Of a stretch of DNA of 32,000 bases, positions 9,094 through 16,404 are shown piece after piece. Position 1 is the first letter of the stretch, and every line of letters starts with the position of its first letter. Made by a program: the position numbers and the translations under genes. Source of the stretch: Candidatus Electronema aureum (GTDB lineage: Bacteria > Desulfobacterota > Desulfobulbia > Desulfobulbales > Desulfobulbaceae); NCBI GenBank assembly GCA_004284765.1, contig NQJD01000009.1, forward strand, positions 30,001 to 62,000, read 5' to 3'. The notes below the pieces were generated by a model. It was given only the letters and a program-made list of their open reading frames with translations. It ran no database searches and had not been told where the DNA came from.

Positions 9094-9720
9094 TCATGCC
9101 TGTTTTTCCATAAAAGGTGTAATATCACCTTTACCTTCCCGCAGAATTTCAGGCAGTTCTTCGACCAAAGAAATTACCGTTGACGGTTCAGGGAAAACCT
9201 CGCCGCCATCGATAATCAAATCCACCATGCTGCCGAACAGTTCTTCTACGGCAAAACCATCTATTGGAGCTTCACGGTCTTCCCGCAGGGCACTGGTGTT
9301 CAGCACTGGATTACCCAGTTGCTCAATCAAAGCAAGACAGATCGGCGACTGCGGCAGGCGAATACCCACGGTTTTTTGCTTGGTCAGCATGATTTTTGGT
9401 ACTAATTTAGAACCGGGCAGCACCATCGTGTAAGGGCCAGGCAGATGCTTGCGCAGCAATCGGTAAGCCGGGCTGCTGACATGGGCATATTGGCTGATGT
9501 CCGTCAACGAGGCGCACATGAAGGAAAAGGGCTTGTGCTGGGGTCGCTGCCTGATTTCATGCACCCGCTTGACCGCCTTTTGATTAAAAATATCGCAGCC
9601 AATACCGTACATGGTATCGGTTGGATAACAGATCACGCCACCTTTTTTCAAAACATCCACAGCCATACCGATCAGCCGCTGTTGCGGGTTAACCGGATTG
9701 ATCTCAATGTATTTTACCAT
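9094..9720 (-). CDS. tsaC: L-threonylcarbamoyladenylate synthase (YrdC/TsaC/Sua5 family)
   Basis: Motifs VICYPTDTMYGIGCD, KPFSFMC and GNPVLNTSA. ATG 9720 is preceded by GGGAAGG. The longest ORF (9807) adds 29 unsupported residues. Confidence 0.85.
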   Translation of the reverse strand: MVKYIEINPVNPQQRLIGMAVDVLKKGGVICYPTDTMYGIGCDIFNQKAVKRVHEIRQRPQHKPFSFMCASLTDISQYAHVSSPAYRLLRKHLPGPYTMVLPGSKLVPKIMLTKQKTVGIRLPQSPICLALIEQLGNPVLNTSALREDREAPIDGFAVEELFGSMVDLIIDGGEVFPEPSTVISLVEELPEILREGKGDITPFMEKQA

Positions 9721-9856
9721 TTTTTTGCCTTCCCTAAATCCTCTTGATTTGCCTGCGCAGACATTGTACACAGAAGAATTCCAATGGACAACCTCGGCTT
9801 TACTCATAGTAACTGCAAACGCAAGGAAATTTTTCCGAACTTTGCCGGAATGCTGC

Positions 9857-9949: not shown

Positions 9950-12601
9950 ATGGCTTCACAGAACGACCAGCGTGCCACCGATTTCGAGGAAGTCAAACGA
10001 ATCCTTGAACAACAACCGCGCATTACCTTAATGCAGACGGAAGGCGAGCCGCCTGATTGCTACGAAATTGAATACCGACTGGCTGGAATGGTGCGGGATG
10101 CTGACGGGACTATCCGTAAGGCTTCTCAGCATGTGGTTCTCATCACTCTGCCCTTTGGCTATCCTCATTTTCCGCCCACTGTTAAGCCGCTGACTCCACT
10201 TTTTCATCCTGATATTGATCCAGATGCAGTACGCATTTCTTCACACTGGCAACAAAGTCCTTCTTTAGCCAAGCTCATTGTTCAAGTCGGCGAGATGATT
10301 TGTGGTAAAAACTACAATCTCGAAGACCCCTTTAATCAGGAAGCAGCAGACTGGTATGCCCAACACGCTACCGAATTGCCACTTGACAGCTTAGAAGTGG
10401 CGAGCGATGAATCAATTGACGAATTTGATCTGGGACTTGATGATCTTGATTTGGGGCCGACAGGAGGAACCACTGAGGAGCAGTCCTTCGAGCTATCTTT
10501 GGAGTTAGAGTCACCGCAGGCTGTTCATGATGTTTTGGCCGATGCTTCTGCTGATCATCAAGAAGGCGGAACAGGAGGGCTATCGCTGGAACTGGAATCT
10601 TCATCGACAACACTTGAGGAAGATTTTGATCTTGGCGTAGAGGATGGGCAAGAGGATGATCTGTCCTTAGATATCGGTGAACCAGAAAAACCGCCGCAGG
10701 TTGTTCAACAGGATTTTGGGCCAAAGCTGAAGGAAATTCGCTCGCATATTGATCGAAAGGAAATATTTATCGCCGCGCGGCTGCTGAAAGAAGTTCCTGC
10801 GCTCCCGGAAACGGAGATACTCAAGAAGAAGGTCAAGGCCGCGCAAGATAAGTGCGATGAATTACTCCAGAACATGAAGGTGCTGGAGGATGAGGACAAT
10901 TTTGCGGCAGCGCAAGAGGTATTTACCCAGCTCAAGACCGTGGCGGTGGACACACCCGGTTTAGCTGAAATAGGCAGACGCTTGCAGCAGTCGCAGTCCA
11001 TGCTCGATACTTTTGCCCTAACCAAAGAAAAAACCGAGCCGGAAACCGAGCTGCCCGGCGCAGAAAAAAAGAAAAAAAAATCTGCCAAAGAAACACCACC
11101 TCCTCTGCCTAAACTAAAGGAAAAACCTGCCGAGCCGAAGGAAAAGAAAGAGGTTATTAAAACCAAATCGAGGATTATCCGAGCAGCGCAGCAGAATGTG
11201 CCGGTCGCGCCTTTTGCTGTTGCCGCTGCGGTAGCTGCGGTAATCATCGTAGGTGGGCTGGTTTACACCAGAGATAGCAACACTCTCTTAGAAGCGCAGC
11301 GCGATTGGCAGGAAGCCCAAGGTCTTGTCAAGCAAAAGAATTTTCCCCAAGCAGAGGCCAAAATCAACATCGCTTCTGCGGCACTGAAAACGGTACTCAC
11401 TCCTTTGCCGGAAAAAAGCCGAATCAAGACTGAAATTGCTGCATTATTTGCCAATGAGGACTTTCAGCGCGGATTGAAAAATGAGGCCAAGTATAAAGAT
11501 CAGTATCTACCGCTTCAAGAGGTCAAGGCGCGCGAGCAGTTAGACAAGATGACCACCCAAGCCGAGGCGTTAAAAGCAAACAGCGTCAGCGATGCCGCAG
11601 CTGCTTACGAAAAAGCCCAGTCTTTTGCCGCTGAAAGCGGATTAGTCGTCGAAGCGGAGCAGTTGAAAGAGCGCGTGCATCAATTGCGGATGAAAGAGGC
11701 GTTGGTCAATGCCGGACGGGCAGAAACTGCTGGAGAGTGGGAAAACGCGGCCAAAACTTATCAGCAGGCTTTAGAAATTGCCCAAACCTTGACAGATGAC
11801 AAGGAAAAAGAGGCCATCAGCAAGAGATTAGCCGCTGCTGCCTTCAACCGCGAATTAGATCAGTCCAAAAAAAGTTTCACCGGCTCGCAGTGGCAGCAGA
11901 CCATTGAAATGCTGGAACGGGCGAAAAAATTACTGGAGCAGAATCCAGAAACTGCTACGGTTGAACGGCGGCAGGAGTTAGAGCGACTTTTGGCCAAGTC
12001 TCGTTTGCATCAGGTGCTTTCGACAGCGCGGCAGGCTTATGACAGCGGTGATACCGCTACCGCAGTGAGAGGCTACCGGCAGTCACTGGCTTTGCTCACG
12101 AACCAGCTGTCATTGTTCGACGAAACAGACCGCAACGCTGCCCATTCAATCAGCAGAACCATCACCATGATTGAAATCGGCGGTGAGCTGAACGCAGCAG
12201 TGACAGCGGAAAACCAGAAGGAGTTGACCGATGCGCTTCGCCATTATCGGGCTATTCAAAATCTTTTCAACACGCCCGGATTAACTAAGGATTCCAGCCT
12301 GCTGACATTGGAGGAAAATGTCAATGCCAAAGTCAGCAGCCTGAGTAGCGAAGCAGGCATGAAGCGAAAGACTGCGTGGTTGAACCGAAATTTTAGACGC
12401 ATCTTTATGGAAGTTTATCCAAATTCACGTCCAACTGATCTCAGCAATCCAAATCTCAGCTTGGTCAAAAAAGTTGGCAATCAAGAAATCTACAAACTGA
12501 CCTGCACCGAGCGAAGCAGAGGCAGCGCGTATCAACTTGAACTTATTTATCTCTACGACCCAGTTGCCGATCAGTGGATAGCCTACCGGGGCGTGCTGTG
12601 A
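9950..12601 (+). CDS. Single-pass membrane protein: N-terminal E2/UEV-like (UBC-fold, no catalytic Cys) domain, acidic repeat region, coiled coil, Lys-rich segment, TM helix, and a long helical (TPR-like) C-terminal region
   Basis: HVVLITLPFGYPHFPPTVKPLTPLFHPDIDPDAVRISSHWQQSPSLAKLIVQVGEMICGKNYNLEDPFNQEAADWY aligns by eye with the E2 core ([41 protein letters not shown].L......L..I..LL..PNPDDPL..EAA..Y). The TM helix is PFAVAAAVAAVIIVGGLVY (about nt 11198..11268). Confidence 0.8.
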   Translation: MASQNDQRATDFEEVKRILEQQPRITLMQTEGEPPDCYEIEYRLAGMVRDADGTIRKASQHVVLITLPFGYPHFPPTVKPLTPLFHPDIDPDAVRISSHWQQSPSLAKLIVQVGEMICGKNYNLEDPFNQEAADWYAQHATELPLDSLEVASDESIDEFDLGLDDLDLGPTGGTTEEQSFELSLELESPQAVHDVLADASADHQEGGTGGLSLELESSSTTLEEDFDLGVEDGQEDDLSLDIGEPEKPPQVVQQDFGPKLKEIRSHIDRKEIFIAARLLKEVPALPETEILKKKVKAAQDKCDELLQNMKVLEDEDNFAAAQEVFTQLKTVAVDTPGLAEIGRRLQQSQSMLDTFALTKEKTEPETELPGAEKKKKKSAKETPPPLPKLKEKPAEPKEKKEVIKTKSRIIRAAQQNVPVAPFAVAAAVAAVIIVGGLVYTRDSNTLLEAQRDWQEAQGLVKQKNFPQAEAKINIASAALKTVLTPLPEKSRIKTEIAALFANEDFQRGLKNEAKYKDQYLPLQEVKAREQLDKMTTQAEALKANSVSDAAAAYEKAQSFAAESGLVVEAEQLKERVHQLRMKEALVNAGRAETAGEWENAAKTYQQALEIAQTLTDDKEKEAISKRLAAAAFNRELDQSKKSFTGSQWQQTIEMLERAKKLLEQNPETATVERRQELERLLAKSRLHQVLSTARQAYDSGDTATAVRGYRQSLALLTNQLSLFDETDRNAAHSISRTITMIEIGGELNAAVTAENQKELTDALRHYRAIQNLFNTPGLTKDSSLLTLEENVNAKVSSLSSEAGMKRKTAWLNRNFRRIFMEVYPNSRPTDLSNPNLSLVKKVGNQEIYKLTCTERSRGSAYQLELIYLYDPVADQWIAYRGVL

Positions 12602-12852
12602 TGGTGGTGGTGATGCTCATGCCCCGGCGCAGCTAAGGGGCCGCCTGCTTTATGCAGAGCTTCCGTCAAAGCGTGTTGCGCGGCCTGAAGAGCTTCCACC
12701 GCGCTGCGCAAAAGGGCGGTTGTTTCTGGTGATTCGGCAGCCAACTTGTCTGCCCATTGCAGGAATTCTGTGCTATGACCTTGATTATGCTCAAGCCAAT
12801 GCGGCAGTAGCACCCGTACTTTGTCCAGATTATTCATCATTTGCTCCTTCAT
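12583..12852 (-). CDS. Small helical protein with a C-terminal poly-His tail (putative metal-binding partner of CooT)
   Basis: 89 aa with the motif HWLEHNQGH and the tail PGHEHHHHHHSTPR. Its start overlaps the CooT-like stop by 4 nt (12849-12852). Its 3' end overlaps the convergent 883-aa gene by 19 nt. Confidence 0.65.
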   Translation of the reverse strand: MKEQMMNNLDKVRVLLPHWLEHNQGHSTEFLQWADKLAAESPETTALLRSAVEALQAAQHALTEALHKAGGPLAAPGHEHHHHHHSTPR

Positions 12853-13052
12853 GTTGTTTTTTCTTCGCTGATGAGCAGAATCGCACCGGTCAGCAGGCTG
12901 ATGCTTCTGACCCGCACCCCCCGCACTGTCATCGGTTCCTCAAAAAAGGTGCTGAGAATCACACCATCCTCAGTCACTTCCACGCCAGTGACCGATTCCA
13001 TCAAGGTTTCGCAGCGATCTCCTCGCTCAAGCACTGCCTTTAGTTGGCACAT
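12849..13052 (-). CDS. cooT: CooT-family nickel-binding protein
   Basis: The 67-aa product MCQLKAVLERGD...VTGVEVTEDGVILSTFFEEPMTVRGVRVRSISLLTGAILLISEE aligns with Rhodospirillum rubrum CooT (MCMAKVVL...VLEVRAEGGAVRVTTLFDEE...RVDLRSGVISLIEE), including Cys2. ATG 13052 is preceded by GGGAGGG. The longest ORF (13139) is an unsupported extension. Confidence 0.85.
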   Translation of the reverse strand: MCQLKAVLERGDRCETLMESVTGVEVTEDGVILSTFFEEPMTVRGVRVRSISLLTGAILLISEEKTT

Positions 13053-13062
13053 TTTTCCCTCC

Positions 13063-14055
13063 TTAAATAAGAAAACGGAACTCGCCCTTGCCGAGTAGAT
13101 CGTGCAAATGCAGCAAACCTTGCACCTTGCCCGCCGCATCAGTCACTGCGAGTACAGTGATATCCTTTTCCTGCATCAGGCTGAGGGCATCAGCAGCCAT
13201 GAGTTCTGGAGTGATCTTGACCGGGCTGGTGGTCATAACCTCAGCGAGATTCATGCAATTCTTTCGCCCTGGTTCGGTCAGCAATTGGCTGCGGATCAGG
13301 CAGCGACGGAGATCACCGTCCGTGATGATGCCACGCAGCTCACGATCAGCAGCTACGACCAGCACTGCACCAAGGTTTTTGCAGTTCAACTCGGTAATTG
13401 CCGCGTCAAGATTAGCTTCTTCGCTGACCATCGGCACCTGTTCACCAATGAGCATGACCTCGCGCACAGCCACCTTGAGGCGTTCGCCCAAACTGCCGCC
13501 GGGATGATTGCGCCGGAAATCCTCCGCCTTGAAGCGGTGCCGCTGGAGCAGGGCCACAGCCAGGGCATCGCCGAGGGCCAAGGTAGCGGTCGTGGAGGTG
13601 GTCGGAGCCAAGCCCAGTGGACAGGCTTCCTTGGGGATTGCGATATTCAGTACCACCGCCGCCTGTTCTGCCAGCGAGGAGCGAGGATTGCCGGTCATGG
13701 CGATCACTGGCACGGTACGTTCTTTCAGACTGGCTAAGAGGCGGTTCAGCTCCGCTGTTTCGCCAGAATAAGAAATCGCCAACACCACGTCTGTTGGGCT
13801 GACCATCCCAAGATCGCCGTGCATCGCCTCGACCGGATGGAGAAAAAACGATGGTGTACCAGTGGAATTAAAGGTAGCCGCCATCTTTTGGCCGACCAGC
13901 CCAGACTTGCCAATGCCAGTGATGATCAGACGGTTCGGCGGGCAAGCCATGATCAGGTCAACCGCTTGGACAAATTCCTGCCCCAGCGCGTCCCGCACGG
14001 CATGAATGCCCTCAGCCTCAATGGTCAACACCTCGCGGGCTTGCTCAACGGTCAT
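13063..14055 (-). CDS. kdsD: Arabinose-5-phosphate isomerase (KpsF/GutQ/KdsD family; SIS domain plus tandem CBS)
   Basis: ITGIGKSGLVGQKMAATFNSTGTPSFFLHPVEAMHGDLGM is the SIS domain motif. The C-terminal CBS pair includes GAVLVV and GIITDGDLRR. Confidence 0.9.
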   Translation of the reverse strand: MTVEQAREVLTIEAEGIHAVRDALGQEFVQAVDLIMACPPNRLIITGIGKSGLVGQKMAATFNSTGTPSFFLHPVEAMHGDLGMVSPTDVVLAISYSGETAELNRLLASLKERTVPVIAMTGNPRSSLAEQAAVVLNIAIPKEACPLGLAPTTSTTATLALGDALAVALLQRHRFKAEDFRRNHPGGSLGERLKVAVREVMLIGEQVPMVSEEANLDAAITELNCKNLGAVLVVAADRELRGIITDGDLRRCLIRSQLLTEPGRKNCMNLAEVMTTSPVKITPELMAADALSLMQEKDITVLAVTDAAGKVQGLLHLHDLLGKGEFRFLI

Positions 14056-15089: not shown

Positions 15090-16385
15090 CTATGGCGTAT
15101 TTGTGCATAACGGTATCTCCTTCAAAAGGAGATTGTGATTTTCTTCTACCTTGTAATCATAGTTAATTTTAAAAAAATCTATTTCTTTTTCTCTTTTTTC
15201 ATACGAAGAAAGGATGTTGTAAATATTATTGGCGGTCGTGGAGTAGTTATGGCCGCTATATTCCATAGAGATTCTTTTGTAAATATTTTTTACCTTTTCA
15301 AATAGATGCCTTTTATCACTATCTTTCTCGTAACATTGAAGTAGATACATATTTAACCCAGCTATGCTGATCTGGGCTTCAGGGATAAAAGAACTTTTTG
15401 GAAACTTTTTTATAAAAGATTCGTAACGACCTATTTGTTCATCAACAGACTCTATGCTGCACTCATATTCGTATGGAATATGTAGATAAACATCAGCAAG
15501 AGCTTTCTGATCATCGCTTGCGTTTTTATTGTTAATAACTTTACGGTAAGGCTTTGCTACTTCTTCCATCTGTGCACACTCACCAGTACACTCTTGGTCA
15601 ACTTTATCAACGGAAGTGGAATTGATCGCTGATGTCGCTGACTGCGTCTTCTCGATTTTTTGTTTTTGATTTGCTGCGTCAGCAGTTACAACTTTGTTTT
15701 CTTTGGTTACAGAAATAGGATTATTCTCCTTTTTAGGAATATAAGCATCCTGTTGAGTTGCAATTTGATTATCCTTCTTAACCTCAGCAGGATAGAACTT
15801 GTAATAGAAGAAAACAAAGGTTGCGACAATGACAAAAGATGTAATTACAATTTTATTTTTGCTGATAAAAATTTTATTGTCTTTATCGGTTTTATTTTCT
15901 ATACGCTCAAAGTTTATATTTGCTTTAAAGTCAGATTCAGTTTTTTCTAAATTTTTTACTTTTTTAATTGAATCGCATTGAGTAATTCCTATCGCTTTGA
16001 TTAAACGCTGATATCCATTCGCTTCATATAAATTCATCCAGTGCCAGCGACTAAGACGAGCTGGAACCTCGCAATCTTCAAGGCGGACAGGAATAATAAA
16101 TATTTTTCCTTCCGGTTGTTCTTCAGCAGCATCAAGTGCAAAACAGATTTCTTTCTGAACGTATCCGCGTTTGTTGACTGAATTTCTGGAAAGACAAACA
16201 ATCACTATAGCGGAAGAGCGAACAGCTTTACGAATTTCATACTGCCAGTCTTGCCCAGGCAAGAGGTCTTCTTCATCGAGCCAAGGATAATAACCATCCT
16301 TTTTTAACCGATGATATAGTTCCCTGACTTTTGCTTTGTCAGCCGAAGAATGGCAGAGAAATATGCGAGAAGAAGGTGATGTCAT
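15090..16385 (-). CDS. TIR-domain membrane protein (N-terminal TIR_2-like domain, one TM helix, Cys-containing helical C-terminal domain)
   Basis: RIFLCHSSADKAKVRELYHRLKKDGYYPWLDEEDLLPGQDWQYEIRKAVRSSAIVIVCLSRNSVNKRGYVQKEICFAL fits the bacterial TIR pattern (hhhSasS.D, W.D, L.PG..W, hhhhhS..S..S.WV..E). The TM helix is IVITSFVIVATFVFFYYKF. The gene is strongly AT-rich relative to its neighbours. ATG 16385 is preferred over TTG 16391. Confidence 0.85.
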   Translation of the reverse strand: MTSPSSRIFLCHSSADKAKVRELYHRLKKDGYYPWLDEEDLLPGQDWQYEIRKAVRSSAIVIVCLSRNSVNKRGYVQKEICFALDAAEEQPEGKIFIIPVRLEDCEVPARLSRWHWMNLYEANGYQRLIKAIGITQCDSIKKVKNLEKTESDFKANINFERIENKTDKDNKIFISKNKIVITSFVIVATFVFFYYKFYPAEVKKDNQIATQQDAYIPKKENNPISVTKENKVVTADAANQKQKIEKTQSATSAINSTSVDKVDQECTGECAQMEEVAKPYRKVINNKNASDDQKALADVYLHIPYEYECSIESVDEQIGRYESFIKKFPKSSFIPEAQISIAGLNMYLLQCYEKDSDKRHLFEKVKNIYKRISMEYSGHNYSTTANNIYNILSSYEKREKEIDFFKINYDYKVEENHNLLLKEIPLCTNTP

Positions 16386-16404
16386 AGCCAATGCAATAAG
16401 TTAT

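Follow-up and report, generated by a model that had tools for sequence, protein, structure and literature searches.

The locus

The 32,000-nucleotide stretch of Candidatus Electronema aureum DNA analysed here (contig NQJD01000009.1, positions 30,001 to 62,000; hereafter the window) carries on its forward strand, at 9950..12601, an open reading frame (ORF) for a protein of 883 amino acids (aa). The N-terminal domain of this protein has the fold of ubiquitin-conjugating enzymes (E2s), known as the UBC fold, and holds an arginine at the position of the catalytic cysteine. An initial reading of the letters alone (the original prediction) had placed at exactly these coordinates a membrane-anchored protein with a Cys-less, E2-like head. 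A database search found 180 homologs of the window protein, and the best locus in a collection of species genomes is that of Ca. Electronema nielsenii F5, with 99% identity across aa 1-150. No NCBIfam family was found for the protein.

The other genes of the window are ordinary chromosomal ones and include rpsA, an HU/IHF-type gene, tsaC/yrdC, kpsF, genes for an alcohol dehydrogenase (ADH) and a biotin/lipoate ligase, dnaN, minCD and a Mur ligase gene, and among them the E2-like gene appears to be monocistronic. The predicted order within the protein is a cytoplasmic UBC head, a variable acidic linker, a helical region, a Lys/Pro-rich segment, a transmembrane (TM) helix, a periplasmic solenoid resembling tetratricopeptide repeats (TPRs) and a small beta domain (Table 1).

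Table 1. Features of the E2-like gene and its divergent neighbour, in window coordinates
Feature	Coordinates	Strand	Residues	Evidence
Membrane-anchored E2-like pseudoenzyme, whole gene	9950..12601	+	1-883	ORF; 98% identity to the nearest database protein, a hypothetical protein of 'Desulfobulbus sp. F5' (cable-bacterium single-cell genome)
Cytoplasmic UBC (E2) fold domain, best-conserved part	9950..10384	+	1-145	UQ_con match, AlphaFold2 model, Foldseek, column identity 0.60-0.88
Arg95 codon CGC at the catalytic-Cys column	10232..10234	+	95	Arg in 120 of 120 close homologs; alignments to Cys-bearing proteins
HPD triad in place of HPN	10205..10213	+	86-88	His and Pro invariant, Asp in 119 of 120 homologs
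Val78 codon, column of a second conserved Cys in Cys-bearing relatives	10181..10183	+	78	Co-occurrence counts
Acidic linker, probably disordered, with LSLELES twice (aa 182-188, 211-217)	10385..10729	+	146-260	Composition
Conserved cytoplasmic region	10730..11029	+	261-360	Ungapped in the family, column identity 0.52-0.58; collinear with the Desulfomarina ortholog P0166
Lys/Pro-rich juxtamembrane segment	11060..11155	+	371-402	12 Lys and 6 Pro in 32 residues
Single predicted TM helix, predicted N-in/C-out	11198..11269	+	417-440	Peak Kyte-Doolittle value 2.46
Predicted periplasmic TPR-like helical solenoid	11270..12415	+	441-822	AlphaFold2 model, 16 helices
C-terminal small beta domain, four-stranded antiparallel sheet	12416..12598	+	831-878	DSSP on the AlphaFold2 model
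tsaC/yrdC (Sua5_yciO_yrdC), divergent upstream neighbour	9094..9807	-		Pfam; occupies the slot of the PATAN/DUF4388 gene

A UBC fold without a catalytic cysteine

Evidence for the fold comes from sequence profiles and structure comparison alike. Residues 42-140 match the Pfam family UQ_con (PF00179) with 34.1 bits in the full protein and 38.2 bits when aa 1-150 are scanned separately, the gathering cutoff being 27. Apart from UQ_con, the scan of aa 1-150, taken up to E<=10, returned a single weak and unrelated repeat match, and no UEV, RWD or Prok-E2 model was among its results. A phmmer search of the PDB gave 251 E2-type sequences at E<=10 with UBE2C at the top (E=1.2e-8), and a profile of the family likewise ranked UBE2C first (E=1.5e-9). 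An AlphaFold2 model of aa 1-150, computed from a 23-sequence alignment, reached a pLDDT of 91.6 and a pTM of 0.87 and shows the helix-sheet-helix order of secondary structure typical of UBC domains. When this model was compared with the PDB by Foldseek, 346 matches were obtained at E<=1e-3, and all 50 of the matches listed were E2 structures, with TM-scores of 0.52-0.65 among those listed and 14-22% identity to eukaryotic E2s. Residues 1-145 are a genuine UBC/E2 fold, though a diverged version of it.

Both the Pfam search and the structure comparison thus recover the UBC core that had originally been recognized by eye at the N-terminus, and the motifs quoted for it are real. Across 120 homologs, LPFGYPHFPP, FHPD(I)D, W100..P104(S/N)L and DPFNQEAADWY are nearly invariant, and the domain has about 44 invariant positions. 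The label "UEV-type" that was attached to the domain is apt as a functional analogy, meaning a UBC fold that lacks the catalytic cysteine, but it does not hold as a family assignment. The sequence matches UQ_con and none of the UEV, RWD or Prok-E2 models, the His-Pro pair is kept, and the best solved relatives are canonical E2s. With classical E2s the domain shares the UQ_con score and the fold, but neither their catalytic cysteine nor the Asn of their HPN motif.

No cysteine occurs between the HPD triad and W100 in any of the 120 homologs, in which the stretch reads FHPD(I)DP(D/A)A(V/I)R(I) with an invariant Arg. In alignments free of local gaps, Arg95 of the window protein (active-site stretch HPDIDPDAVRISSHW) pairs with the cysteine of P0166, the Desulfomarina ortholog (HPDFDPAAICLGDFW), and with that of P0243, an operon-encoded bacterial E2 (HPNFDPSAICIGDHW). 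HMMER alignments to E2s of the PDB place the E2 cysteine in an insertion beside Arg95. The assignment of Arg95 to the Cys column is nevertheless settled, because the within-family bacterial alignments require no gap there. A MAFFT alignment that included human UBE2C and UBE2D2 also puts Arg95 in the catalytic-Cys column, and in it the bacterial active-site loop is one residue shorter than that of the human E2s before this column and three residues shorter after it. At the codon level, the CGC of Arg95 and a TGC for Cys differ by a single transition. The absence of a catalytic cysteine, as originally read from the window sequence, is therefore a feature of all 120 close homologs, and Arg95 is fixed in the 118 full-length ones.

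A second cysteine accompanies the first. Among clusters of the wider family (described below), column 78 is occupied by Cys in 86 of the 87 with Cys95 and in 2 of the 32 with Arg95, and this second Cys (motif PPSCKP) is also found in operon E2s. Because Cys78 goes with Cys95 and rarely with Arg95, the Arg lineage has lost a coupled cysteine pair. To our knowledge, no role has been described for such a Cys78/Cys95 pair in E2s. The HPD triad has another distribution: it is common to the Cys-bearing membrane relatives, and operon E2s carry HPN. Since Cys-bearing members also have HPD, this change predates the loss of Cys in the membrane family and was already present in the common ancestor of that family.

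Residues that might substitute for the missing nucleophile were also considered. Position 97 is variable among the 120 homologs (Ala in 86, Ser in 19, Thr in 15), as is position 98 (Asp in 48, Ser in 36, Ala in 20). The only well-conserved cysteine is C118 (107 of 120, with Ser in the remainder), which forms part of helix alpha2 and shows no conservation among the family members that carry the catalytic Cys. S97, S98 and C118 were ruled out as substitutes, as none is conserved.

Cys-type and Arg-type members of one family

An exhaustive search with a profile, run against 1.84 billion representative proteins, yielded 1419 clusters when E was limited to 1e-3; 729 of these reach E<=1e-10 and 188 reach E<=1e-30. 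The query and 141 of the clusters listed (50% identity), 142 sequences in all, were assigned to classes by the residues at the HPN-Asn and Cys columns. The class with HPD and Cys (hereafter Cys-type) comprises 66 clusters with a median length of 828 aa, one TM helix near aa 350 and the same architecture as the window protein, which itself belongs to the class with HPD and Arg (hereafter Arg-type; 32 clusters, median 803 aa). A further 21 clusters have HPN and Cys (median 311 aa), and 23 clusters of varied length have other residues at the Cys column. Full-length Cys-type proteins come from Desulfomarina, Desulforhopalus and Desulfopila, and Arg-type proteins from Desulfobulbus, Desulfogranum, Ca. 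Electrothrix and Ca. Electronema, all of them genera of the order Desulfobulbales. The notion that the class with HPN and Cys is a distinct short, soluble form was rejected; many of its members lie on contigs of 1.6-2 kb and are possibly truncated, and genuine operon E2s measure 245-932 aa.

One Cys-type relative, the protein of Desulfomarina profundi (P0166), aligns collinearly with the window protein from end to end (E=4e-70). Its gene sits in the corresponding slot of the chromosome, flanked upstream by a PATAN gene and downstream by a convergent kpsF, and the protein is a positional ortholog that still bears the Cys. Cysteine is the ancestral state at column 95, because canonical E2s, operon E2s and the sister membrane proteins all carry it. 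The window protein is a Cys-to-Arg derivative and not a member of an anciently Cys-less lineage, since the same full-length architecture occurs with Cys95 in sister genera, the D. profundi ortholog included.

A neighbour-joining tree built without the two diagnostic columns places 31 of the 32 Arg clusters inside a Cys-free group of about 40, and over bootstrap replicates the largest Cys-free split has a median of 40 members, 31 of them Arg-type. Because one Arg cluster sits outside the Cys-free group, a second, independent Cys-to-Arg change is suggested. Among the best 80 loci in species genomes, Arg occupies the column in 75 and Cys in none; all 80 belong to the membrane type, with no operon-type locus among them.

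Constraint on the domain outlasted the loss of the cysteine. The mean pairwise identity of the UBC domain is 0.662 among 59 Arg-type proteins versus 0.657 among 55 Cys-type proteins, and values of 0.38-0.45 hold in both sets for the periplasmic region and for the cytoplasmic part that precedes the TM helix. These values point to strong purifying selection on the UBC domain, across 270 species genomes, that was not relaxed after the Cys had been lost.

Several further observations concern variants of the family. Besides Cys and Arg, the Cys column holds Ser in 6 clusters, Lys in 3, His in 2, Ala in 3 and Gln in 2, with Asn, Tyr, Phe, Gly, Leu, Pro and Asp in one cluster each. The Ser forms recall the oxyester E2s of bacterial Bub systems (see below), and the Lys forms bring to mind C-to-K E2s engineered to trap ubiquitin, such as Ube2K C92K (entry 6jb7, among the Foldseek matches). 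In a subfamily of about 530 aa (P0143-P0145, P0149 and P0152; loci L079 and L082), most members have the TM helix immediately behind the UBC domain, near aa 165; the active-site stretches are degenerate (for example HPE..VVPI), and the gene stands alone where checked (L006). A partial protein of Desulfobulbus sp. F1 (P0014, 505 aa) matches 43% of the length of the window protein with 99% identity. It combines PF02627 with PF00179, is named a carboxymuconolactone decarboxylase family protein in its annotation, and probably represents a fusion introduced by gene calling or by assembly of a single-cell genome.

Relation to operon-encoded bacterial E2s

Outside its own family, the window protein finds its nearest relatives among E2s encoded in bacterial ubiquitin-type operons. 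Its UBC domain (aa 1-147) is 42% identical to P0243, an operon E2 with HPN and Cys (E=9e-34), and homology to P0243 ends at aa 147. The operon of P0243 encodes, in order, a YukD-like ubiquitin-like protein (Ubl), a ThiF-type E1, a JAB peptidase, a 175-aa protein with no Pfam match, a VWA/FHA protein, a protein with Prok-RING and RDD domains, a second Prok-RING protein and two large UQ_con proteins. The same operon core recurs in a Phycisphaerae metagenome-assembled genome (MAG) and on another long contig. In the terms in which PMC3417536 cites Burroughs, Iyer and Aravind (2011), who described mobile operons of E1, E2 and JAB genes, sometimes with an E3, by comparative genomics, the P0243-type operon corresponds to these mobile operons.

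The family descends from Cys-bearing bacterial E2s, apparently those of Ubl-E1-JAB-RING operons. The original prediction had set the domain apart from the Cys-containing prokaryotic E2s that occur with E1 and JAB partners, and this part of it has to be revised, as such E2s are the closest relatives known outside the family. A recent transfer of the gene from a eukaryote was ruled out by the 42% identity to bacterial operon E2s versus far weaker eukaryotic matches (E ~1e-8).

Complete operons of the YukD-Ubl/ThiF-E1/JAB/FHA/Prok-RING/UQ_con kind were seen at L005 (248-12451), L087 (8289-15762) and L088 (9679-16231). L005 encodes two large E2s of 932 and 816 aa, with TM segments detected in the 816-aa one, and the best-scoring loci of the tblastn search described below are 40-47% identical to both. 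L087 has MotA/ExbB-ExbD between its Ubl and E1 genes and terminase-like genes just downstream, and the operon of L088 additionally contains a trypsin-like protease.

The window protein, P0166, P0243 and the 932-aa E2 of L005 were also compared with PADLOC models (PADLOC-DB of 2023, which may lack Bub), and none of them matched a family at E<=0.01. Because PADLOC gives no match, the Ubl-E1-JAB-RING operon is regarded as another type than CBASS or Bil. Bub operons encode E2s that lack the catalytic Cys and conjugate through a Ubl~Ser oxyester (bioRxiv 10.1101/2024.11.21.623953). Therefore, the absence of Cys alone does not make an E2 inactive.

Linker, membrane segment and periplasmic part

The segment that follows the UBC domain is strongly acidic, with 34 Asp and Glu versus 2 Lys and Arg across aa 145-260. 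Its LSLELES repeats are present as originally described, but they are not a feature of the family, because the segment is gapped in 70-90% of aligned homologs (gap fraction 0.7-0.9 across aa 161-220).

Other elements of the architecture that had been proposed from the sequence agree with the present analysis, namely the Lys/Pro-rich segment, the one TM helix (a single hydrophobic segment is found) and the helical, TPR-like part of about 440 aa that is predicted to face the periplasm. The coiled-coil stretch of the original prediction would correspond to the conserved aa 261-360, whose helical character is putative. The 25 residues flanking the TM helix contain 7 Lys and Arg on the N side and 4 on the C side. 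The same excess on the N side is seen in 112 of 136 Arg-type and 154 of 164 Cys-type proteins, and no N-terminal hydrophobic or signal-like segment was found in the window protein. The topology is likely to be N-in/C-out.

An AlphaFold2 model of aa 441-883 (pLDDT 90.7) consists of a long run of helical hairpins and ends with a 40-residue helix (aa 782-822) packed on the C-terminal sheet. Pfam TPR matches in this part are weak, and Foldseek returned generic TPR proteins only (TM-scores 0.12-0.20), which give no functional lead. The beta domain has conserved motifs of its own (YPSSR..LS.P and C852/E854/G858), and no specific fold match was obtained for it.

Genomic context

The chromosomal position of the gene is stable. 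In 62 of 85 related loci, kpsF lies convergent downstream. Of the 78 loci whose upstream sequence is long enough, 65, that of the Cys-type Desulfomarina included, have a divergent gene some 283 nt upstream whose product of about 210 aa contains a PATAN/DUF4388 domain (PF14332). In the window and 11 related loci (Ca. Electronema, Ca. Electrothrix and L023, a Desulfobulbaceae MAG), yrdC takes this slot, and no PATAN gene was found within the available sequence of these loci. The slot between kpsF and PATAN or yrdC is conserved across Desulfobulbales, which is not the variable or mobile location of a defence island. The gene is stand-alone, syntenic and vertically inherited in this order.

Partner genes were sought with the products of the ubiquitin-type operon as queries. 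In a tblastn search (E<=1e-3), the E2 domain was matched in the window and all 85 related loci (10-kb flanks where available), and no match was found in them for the Ubl, E1, JAB, 175-aa, VWA/FHA or two RING proteins. Pfam similarly detected no E1, Ubl, JAB or RING gene among the ORFs of the window. The statement that the window has no visible E1, Ubl or JAB gene is thus upheld by both methods, and canonical E1 and Ubl partners do not adjoin the gene in the related genomes either. The sole recurrent hint of a partner is the divergent PATAN gene, which we infer to be the best candidate functional partner in most Desulfobulbales. Examples of it lie on the minus strand at L002 (9089-9718), L004 (8214-8867) and L052 (9032-9748), and the PATAN gene of Desulfomarina carries a cyclic-nucleotide (cNMP)-binding domain.

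Two other items near the gene may be recorded. An 89-aa ORF (12583-12852, minus strand) overlaps the 3' end of the E2-like gene by 19 nt on the opposite strand, belongs to no Pfam family and has homologs in 40 sequences, the window included, with the motif LPHW(L/I)xHNxGH...GGPL and the ending HEHHHHHH. A CooT-like gene (12849-13139, minus strand) follows it, and the two may be a nickel-handling pair. Farther along, a TIR-domain protein of 433 aa is encoded at 15090-16391 (minus strand) in a stretch of 34% GC, versus ~50-55% in most of the window, and sits between the ADH and biotin/lipoate-ligase genes, which adjoin each other in related genomes. Its best PADLOC match is Aga_TIR-PNTD1-PNTD2 (E=1e-20), and the only flanking ORFs of at least 150 aa are those of the ADH and the ligase, so that no partner gene is evident. 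The TIR gene thus resembles a defence-type orphan that was inserted here.

Proposed role and alternative explanations

The window protein is probably a bitopic inner-membrane pseudo-E2 that acts as a non-catalytic trans-membrane adaptor. Because its active site has no nucleophile, the UBC head would carry neither a thioester nor an oxyester. By analogy with the eukaryotic UEV and AKTIP proteins, the head might have been kept as a binding surface for a cytoplasmic partner, and it can be speculated that a carboxylate is contacted by Arg95 in the groove where active E2s hold the Ubl tail. The acidic flexible linker, the conserved cytoplasmic region and the Lys/Pro-rich segment would tether the head to the TM helix. 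On the other side of the membrane, the 440-aa TPR-like solenoid and the terminal beta domain may bind an envelope partner, such that the protein would either link the state of the periplasm or envelope to a cytoplasmic partner or keep this partner at the membrane.

Some alternatives keep the protein within, or close to, ubiquitin-type chemistry. It is rather unlikely that the protein is a non-catalytic cofactor of a Ubl-conjugation pathway encoded elsewhere in the genome and directs conjugation at the membrane, as Uev1a/Mms2 do with Ubc13. Descent speaks for this, since the closest outside relatives belong to complete Ubl-E1-JAB-RING operons and two of the operon E2s are also large proteins with TM segments, and the strong constraint on the UBC surface fits a kept contact with ubiquitin-type machinery. 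Nevertheless, none of the Ubl, E1, JAB or RING homologs lies within 10 kb in the 85 loci or the window, no operon-type gene is among the best 80 species-genome loci, and none of the 120 listed homologs of the operon E1, few of which are named, bears a Desulfobulbales name. Far less probable is a protein that is still an enzyme, with a Ubl or another acyl group carried on a non-Cys nucleophile near the active site. Bub E2s do conjugate via a Ser oxyester (bioRxiv 10.1101/2024.11.21.623953), and some clusters of the family have Ser at the Cys column, but that column holds Arg in the clade of the window protein, and Arg cannot form such an intermediate. Furthermore, positions 97 and 98 vary, C118 is not conserved in the Cys-type family, the Asn of HPN has become Asp, and no E1 gene is nearby.

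Other explanations give the UBC domain little or no importance. The protein could be mainly a periplasmic or envelope TPR scaffold whose UBC head is minor or structural (dimerisation, stability), its E2 ancestry being a historical accident. The periplasmic part does make up half of the protein and is confidently folded and conserved, and there are envelope-related neighbours (kpsF in the window; SecDF and a BamD-like YfiO gene in related loci). This explanation is unlikely, in that the UBC domain is the most conserved region (0.66 vs ~0.4) and its roughly 44 invariant positions go far beyond the need of a spacer or oligomerisation module. That the gene is a decaying relic, or its UBC resemblance due to chance, has virtually no probability left. 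Only the missing Cys and the moderate TM-scores (0.52-0.65) could be cited for it, and it is refuted by the Pfam score above threshold, E-values down to 1e-9 in the PDB and 9e-34 for the bacterial E2, the pLDDT of 91.6 and the purifying selection seen in 270 species genomes.

A number of points weigh against the adaptor reading and must be kept in mind. The adaptor role is deduced from the loss of the nucleophile together with strong conservation. The pairing with the PATAN gene has been lost in cable bacteria and is therefore absent at the window locus. The negative result for partner genes covers the window and the flanks of up to 10 kb in the related loci, and the list of 120 operon-E1 homologs is filled by close homologs from Planctomycetota, Hydrogenedentes and Sumerlaeota and therefore cannot show that such an E1 is absent from Desulfobulbales. 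Periplasmic placement of the C-terminal part is a prediction from the positive-inside rule only. As to the tree, the exact Cys-free group was recovered in 20 of 60 bootstrap replicates, which is modest support, and rooting on the group with HPN and Cys failed, as one long protein with HPN and Cys groups with the Cys-type proteins; unrooted bipartitions were used for this reason. Finally, the equal constraint in both sets could mean that Cys-type proteins are not classical E2s either, in which case "pseudoenzyme" would describe a smaller change.

A broader proposal that includes both forms of the family is speculative, with a small but real chance of being correct. Desulfobulbales may carry a domesticated, core-genome descendant of a mobile ubiquitination operon, in which Cys-type members perform a so far unrecognised thiol-based reaction at the inner membrane and Arg-type members serve as a receptor. 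The Cys-type proteins, with Cys78, Cys95 and HPD, would conjugate a distantly encoded Ubl or sulfur-carrier protein, or act in a redox or acyl relay, with no E1 or Ubl gene adjacent. The Arg-type clade, to which the cable bacteria belong, would read the product or partner and relay information across the membrane. If true, this would amount to a housekeeping, non-defence ubiquitin-like system in bacteria and a natural switch from enzyme to pseudoenzyme.

Comparison with known systems

Detection of the domain is not in itself new, as databases already flag it. NCBI and UniRef sources name several close homologs of the Arg clade "ubiquitin-conjugating enzyme E2", and the Desulfomarina ortholog is a "UBC core domain-containing protein" in UniRef. 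The former name is misleading for the Arg clade, because the nucleophile is absent. A literature search for a membrane-spanning E2-like family, for ubiquitin in cable bacteria or for ubiquitin-conjugating proteins of Desulfobulbaceae found no relevant paper. What appears to be undescribed is the E2-like family as such, with members that span the membrane and whose stand-alone genes keep one chromosomal position throughout Desulfobulbales, together with its natural division into a form with the Cys pair and a form with Arg and Val and its origin among E2s of Ubl-E1-JAB-RING operons.

The bacterial E2-fold proteins characterised to date belong to sparsely distributed E1/E2/Ubl operons for which an antiphage role has been shown or proposed (bioRxiv 10.1101/2024.11.21.623953). 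In contrast, the present family is fixed at one locus in the sampled sulfate reducers and cable bacteria, stands alone, spans the membrane and exists in two natural states. These two states offer a comparison from which it might be learned what an orphan bacterial E2 fold does and how an E2 turns into a pseudoenzyme. The Cys-type orthologs of Desulfomarina, Desulforhopalus and Desulfopila (for example BCL59355.1 / WP_228855589.1) have the same collinear architecture, HPD triad and C-terminal beta domain and keep Cys95 and Cys78, whereas the clade of the window protein has Arg95 and Val78 along with the fixed changes F71Y, I67L and G97A.

Among bacterial systems, the operon E2s share with the window protein a homologous UBC domain and the same shortened active-site loop, and two of them (816 and 921 aa) are also large and have TM segments, one with a weak TPR match. 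They differ from it in having HPN and the Cys pair and in being encoded beside Ubl, E1, JAB, FHA and RING genes, whereas the window protein has HPD, Arg95 and Val78 and a stand-alone, syntenic gene. The E2s of Bub, Bil and CBASS (Cap2) are encoded in operons with an E1, plus a Ubl and a peptidase where described, and their antiphage role is shown or proposed (bioRxiv 10.1101/2024.11.21.623953). They too are bacterial proteins with the E2 fold; the nucleophile of Bub E2s is Ser, and the window protein has Arg.

Eukaryotes provide two further parallels. The pseudo-E2s of the UEV group (Mms2/Uev1a, Tsg101) and AKTIP/FTS have a UBC fold that lacks the Cys and is kept for binding proteins or ubiquitin. 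The window protein resembles them in its Cys-less UBC fold and in the functional logic proposed for it, but its domain keeps the His-Pro pair, arose independently among bacterial E2s, and continues into a TM helix and a predicted periplasmic TPR-like region. The tail-anchored E2s of the endoplasmic reticulum (Ubc6, UBE2J1 and UBE2J2) are active enzymes with a catalytic Cys, and their chains end a few residues past the TM helix. Like the window protein, they have an N-terminal cytoplasmic UBC domain that a linker tethers to a single TM helix, whereas the window protein has no catalytic Cys and would extend beyond its TM helix into an extracytoplasmic domain of 440 aa.

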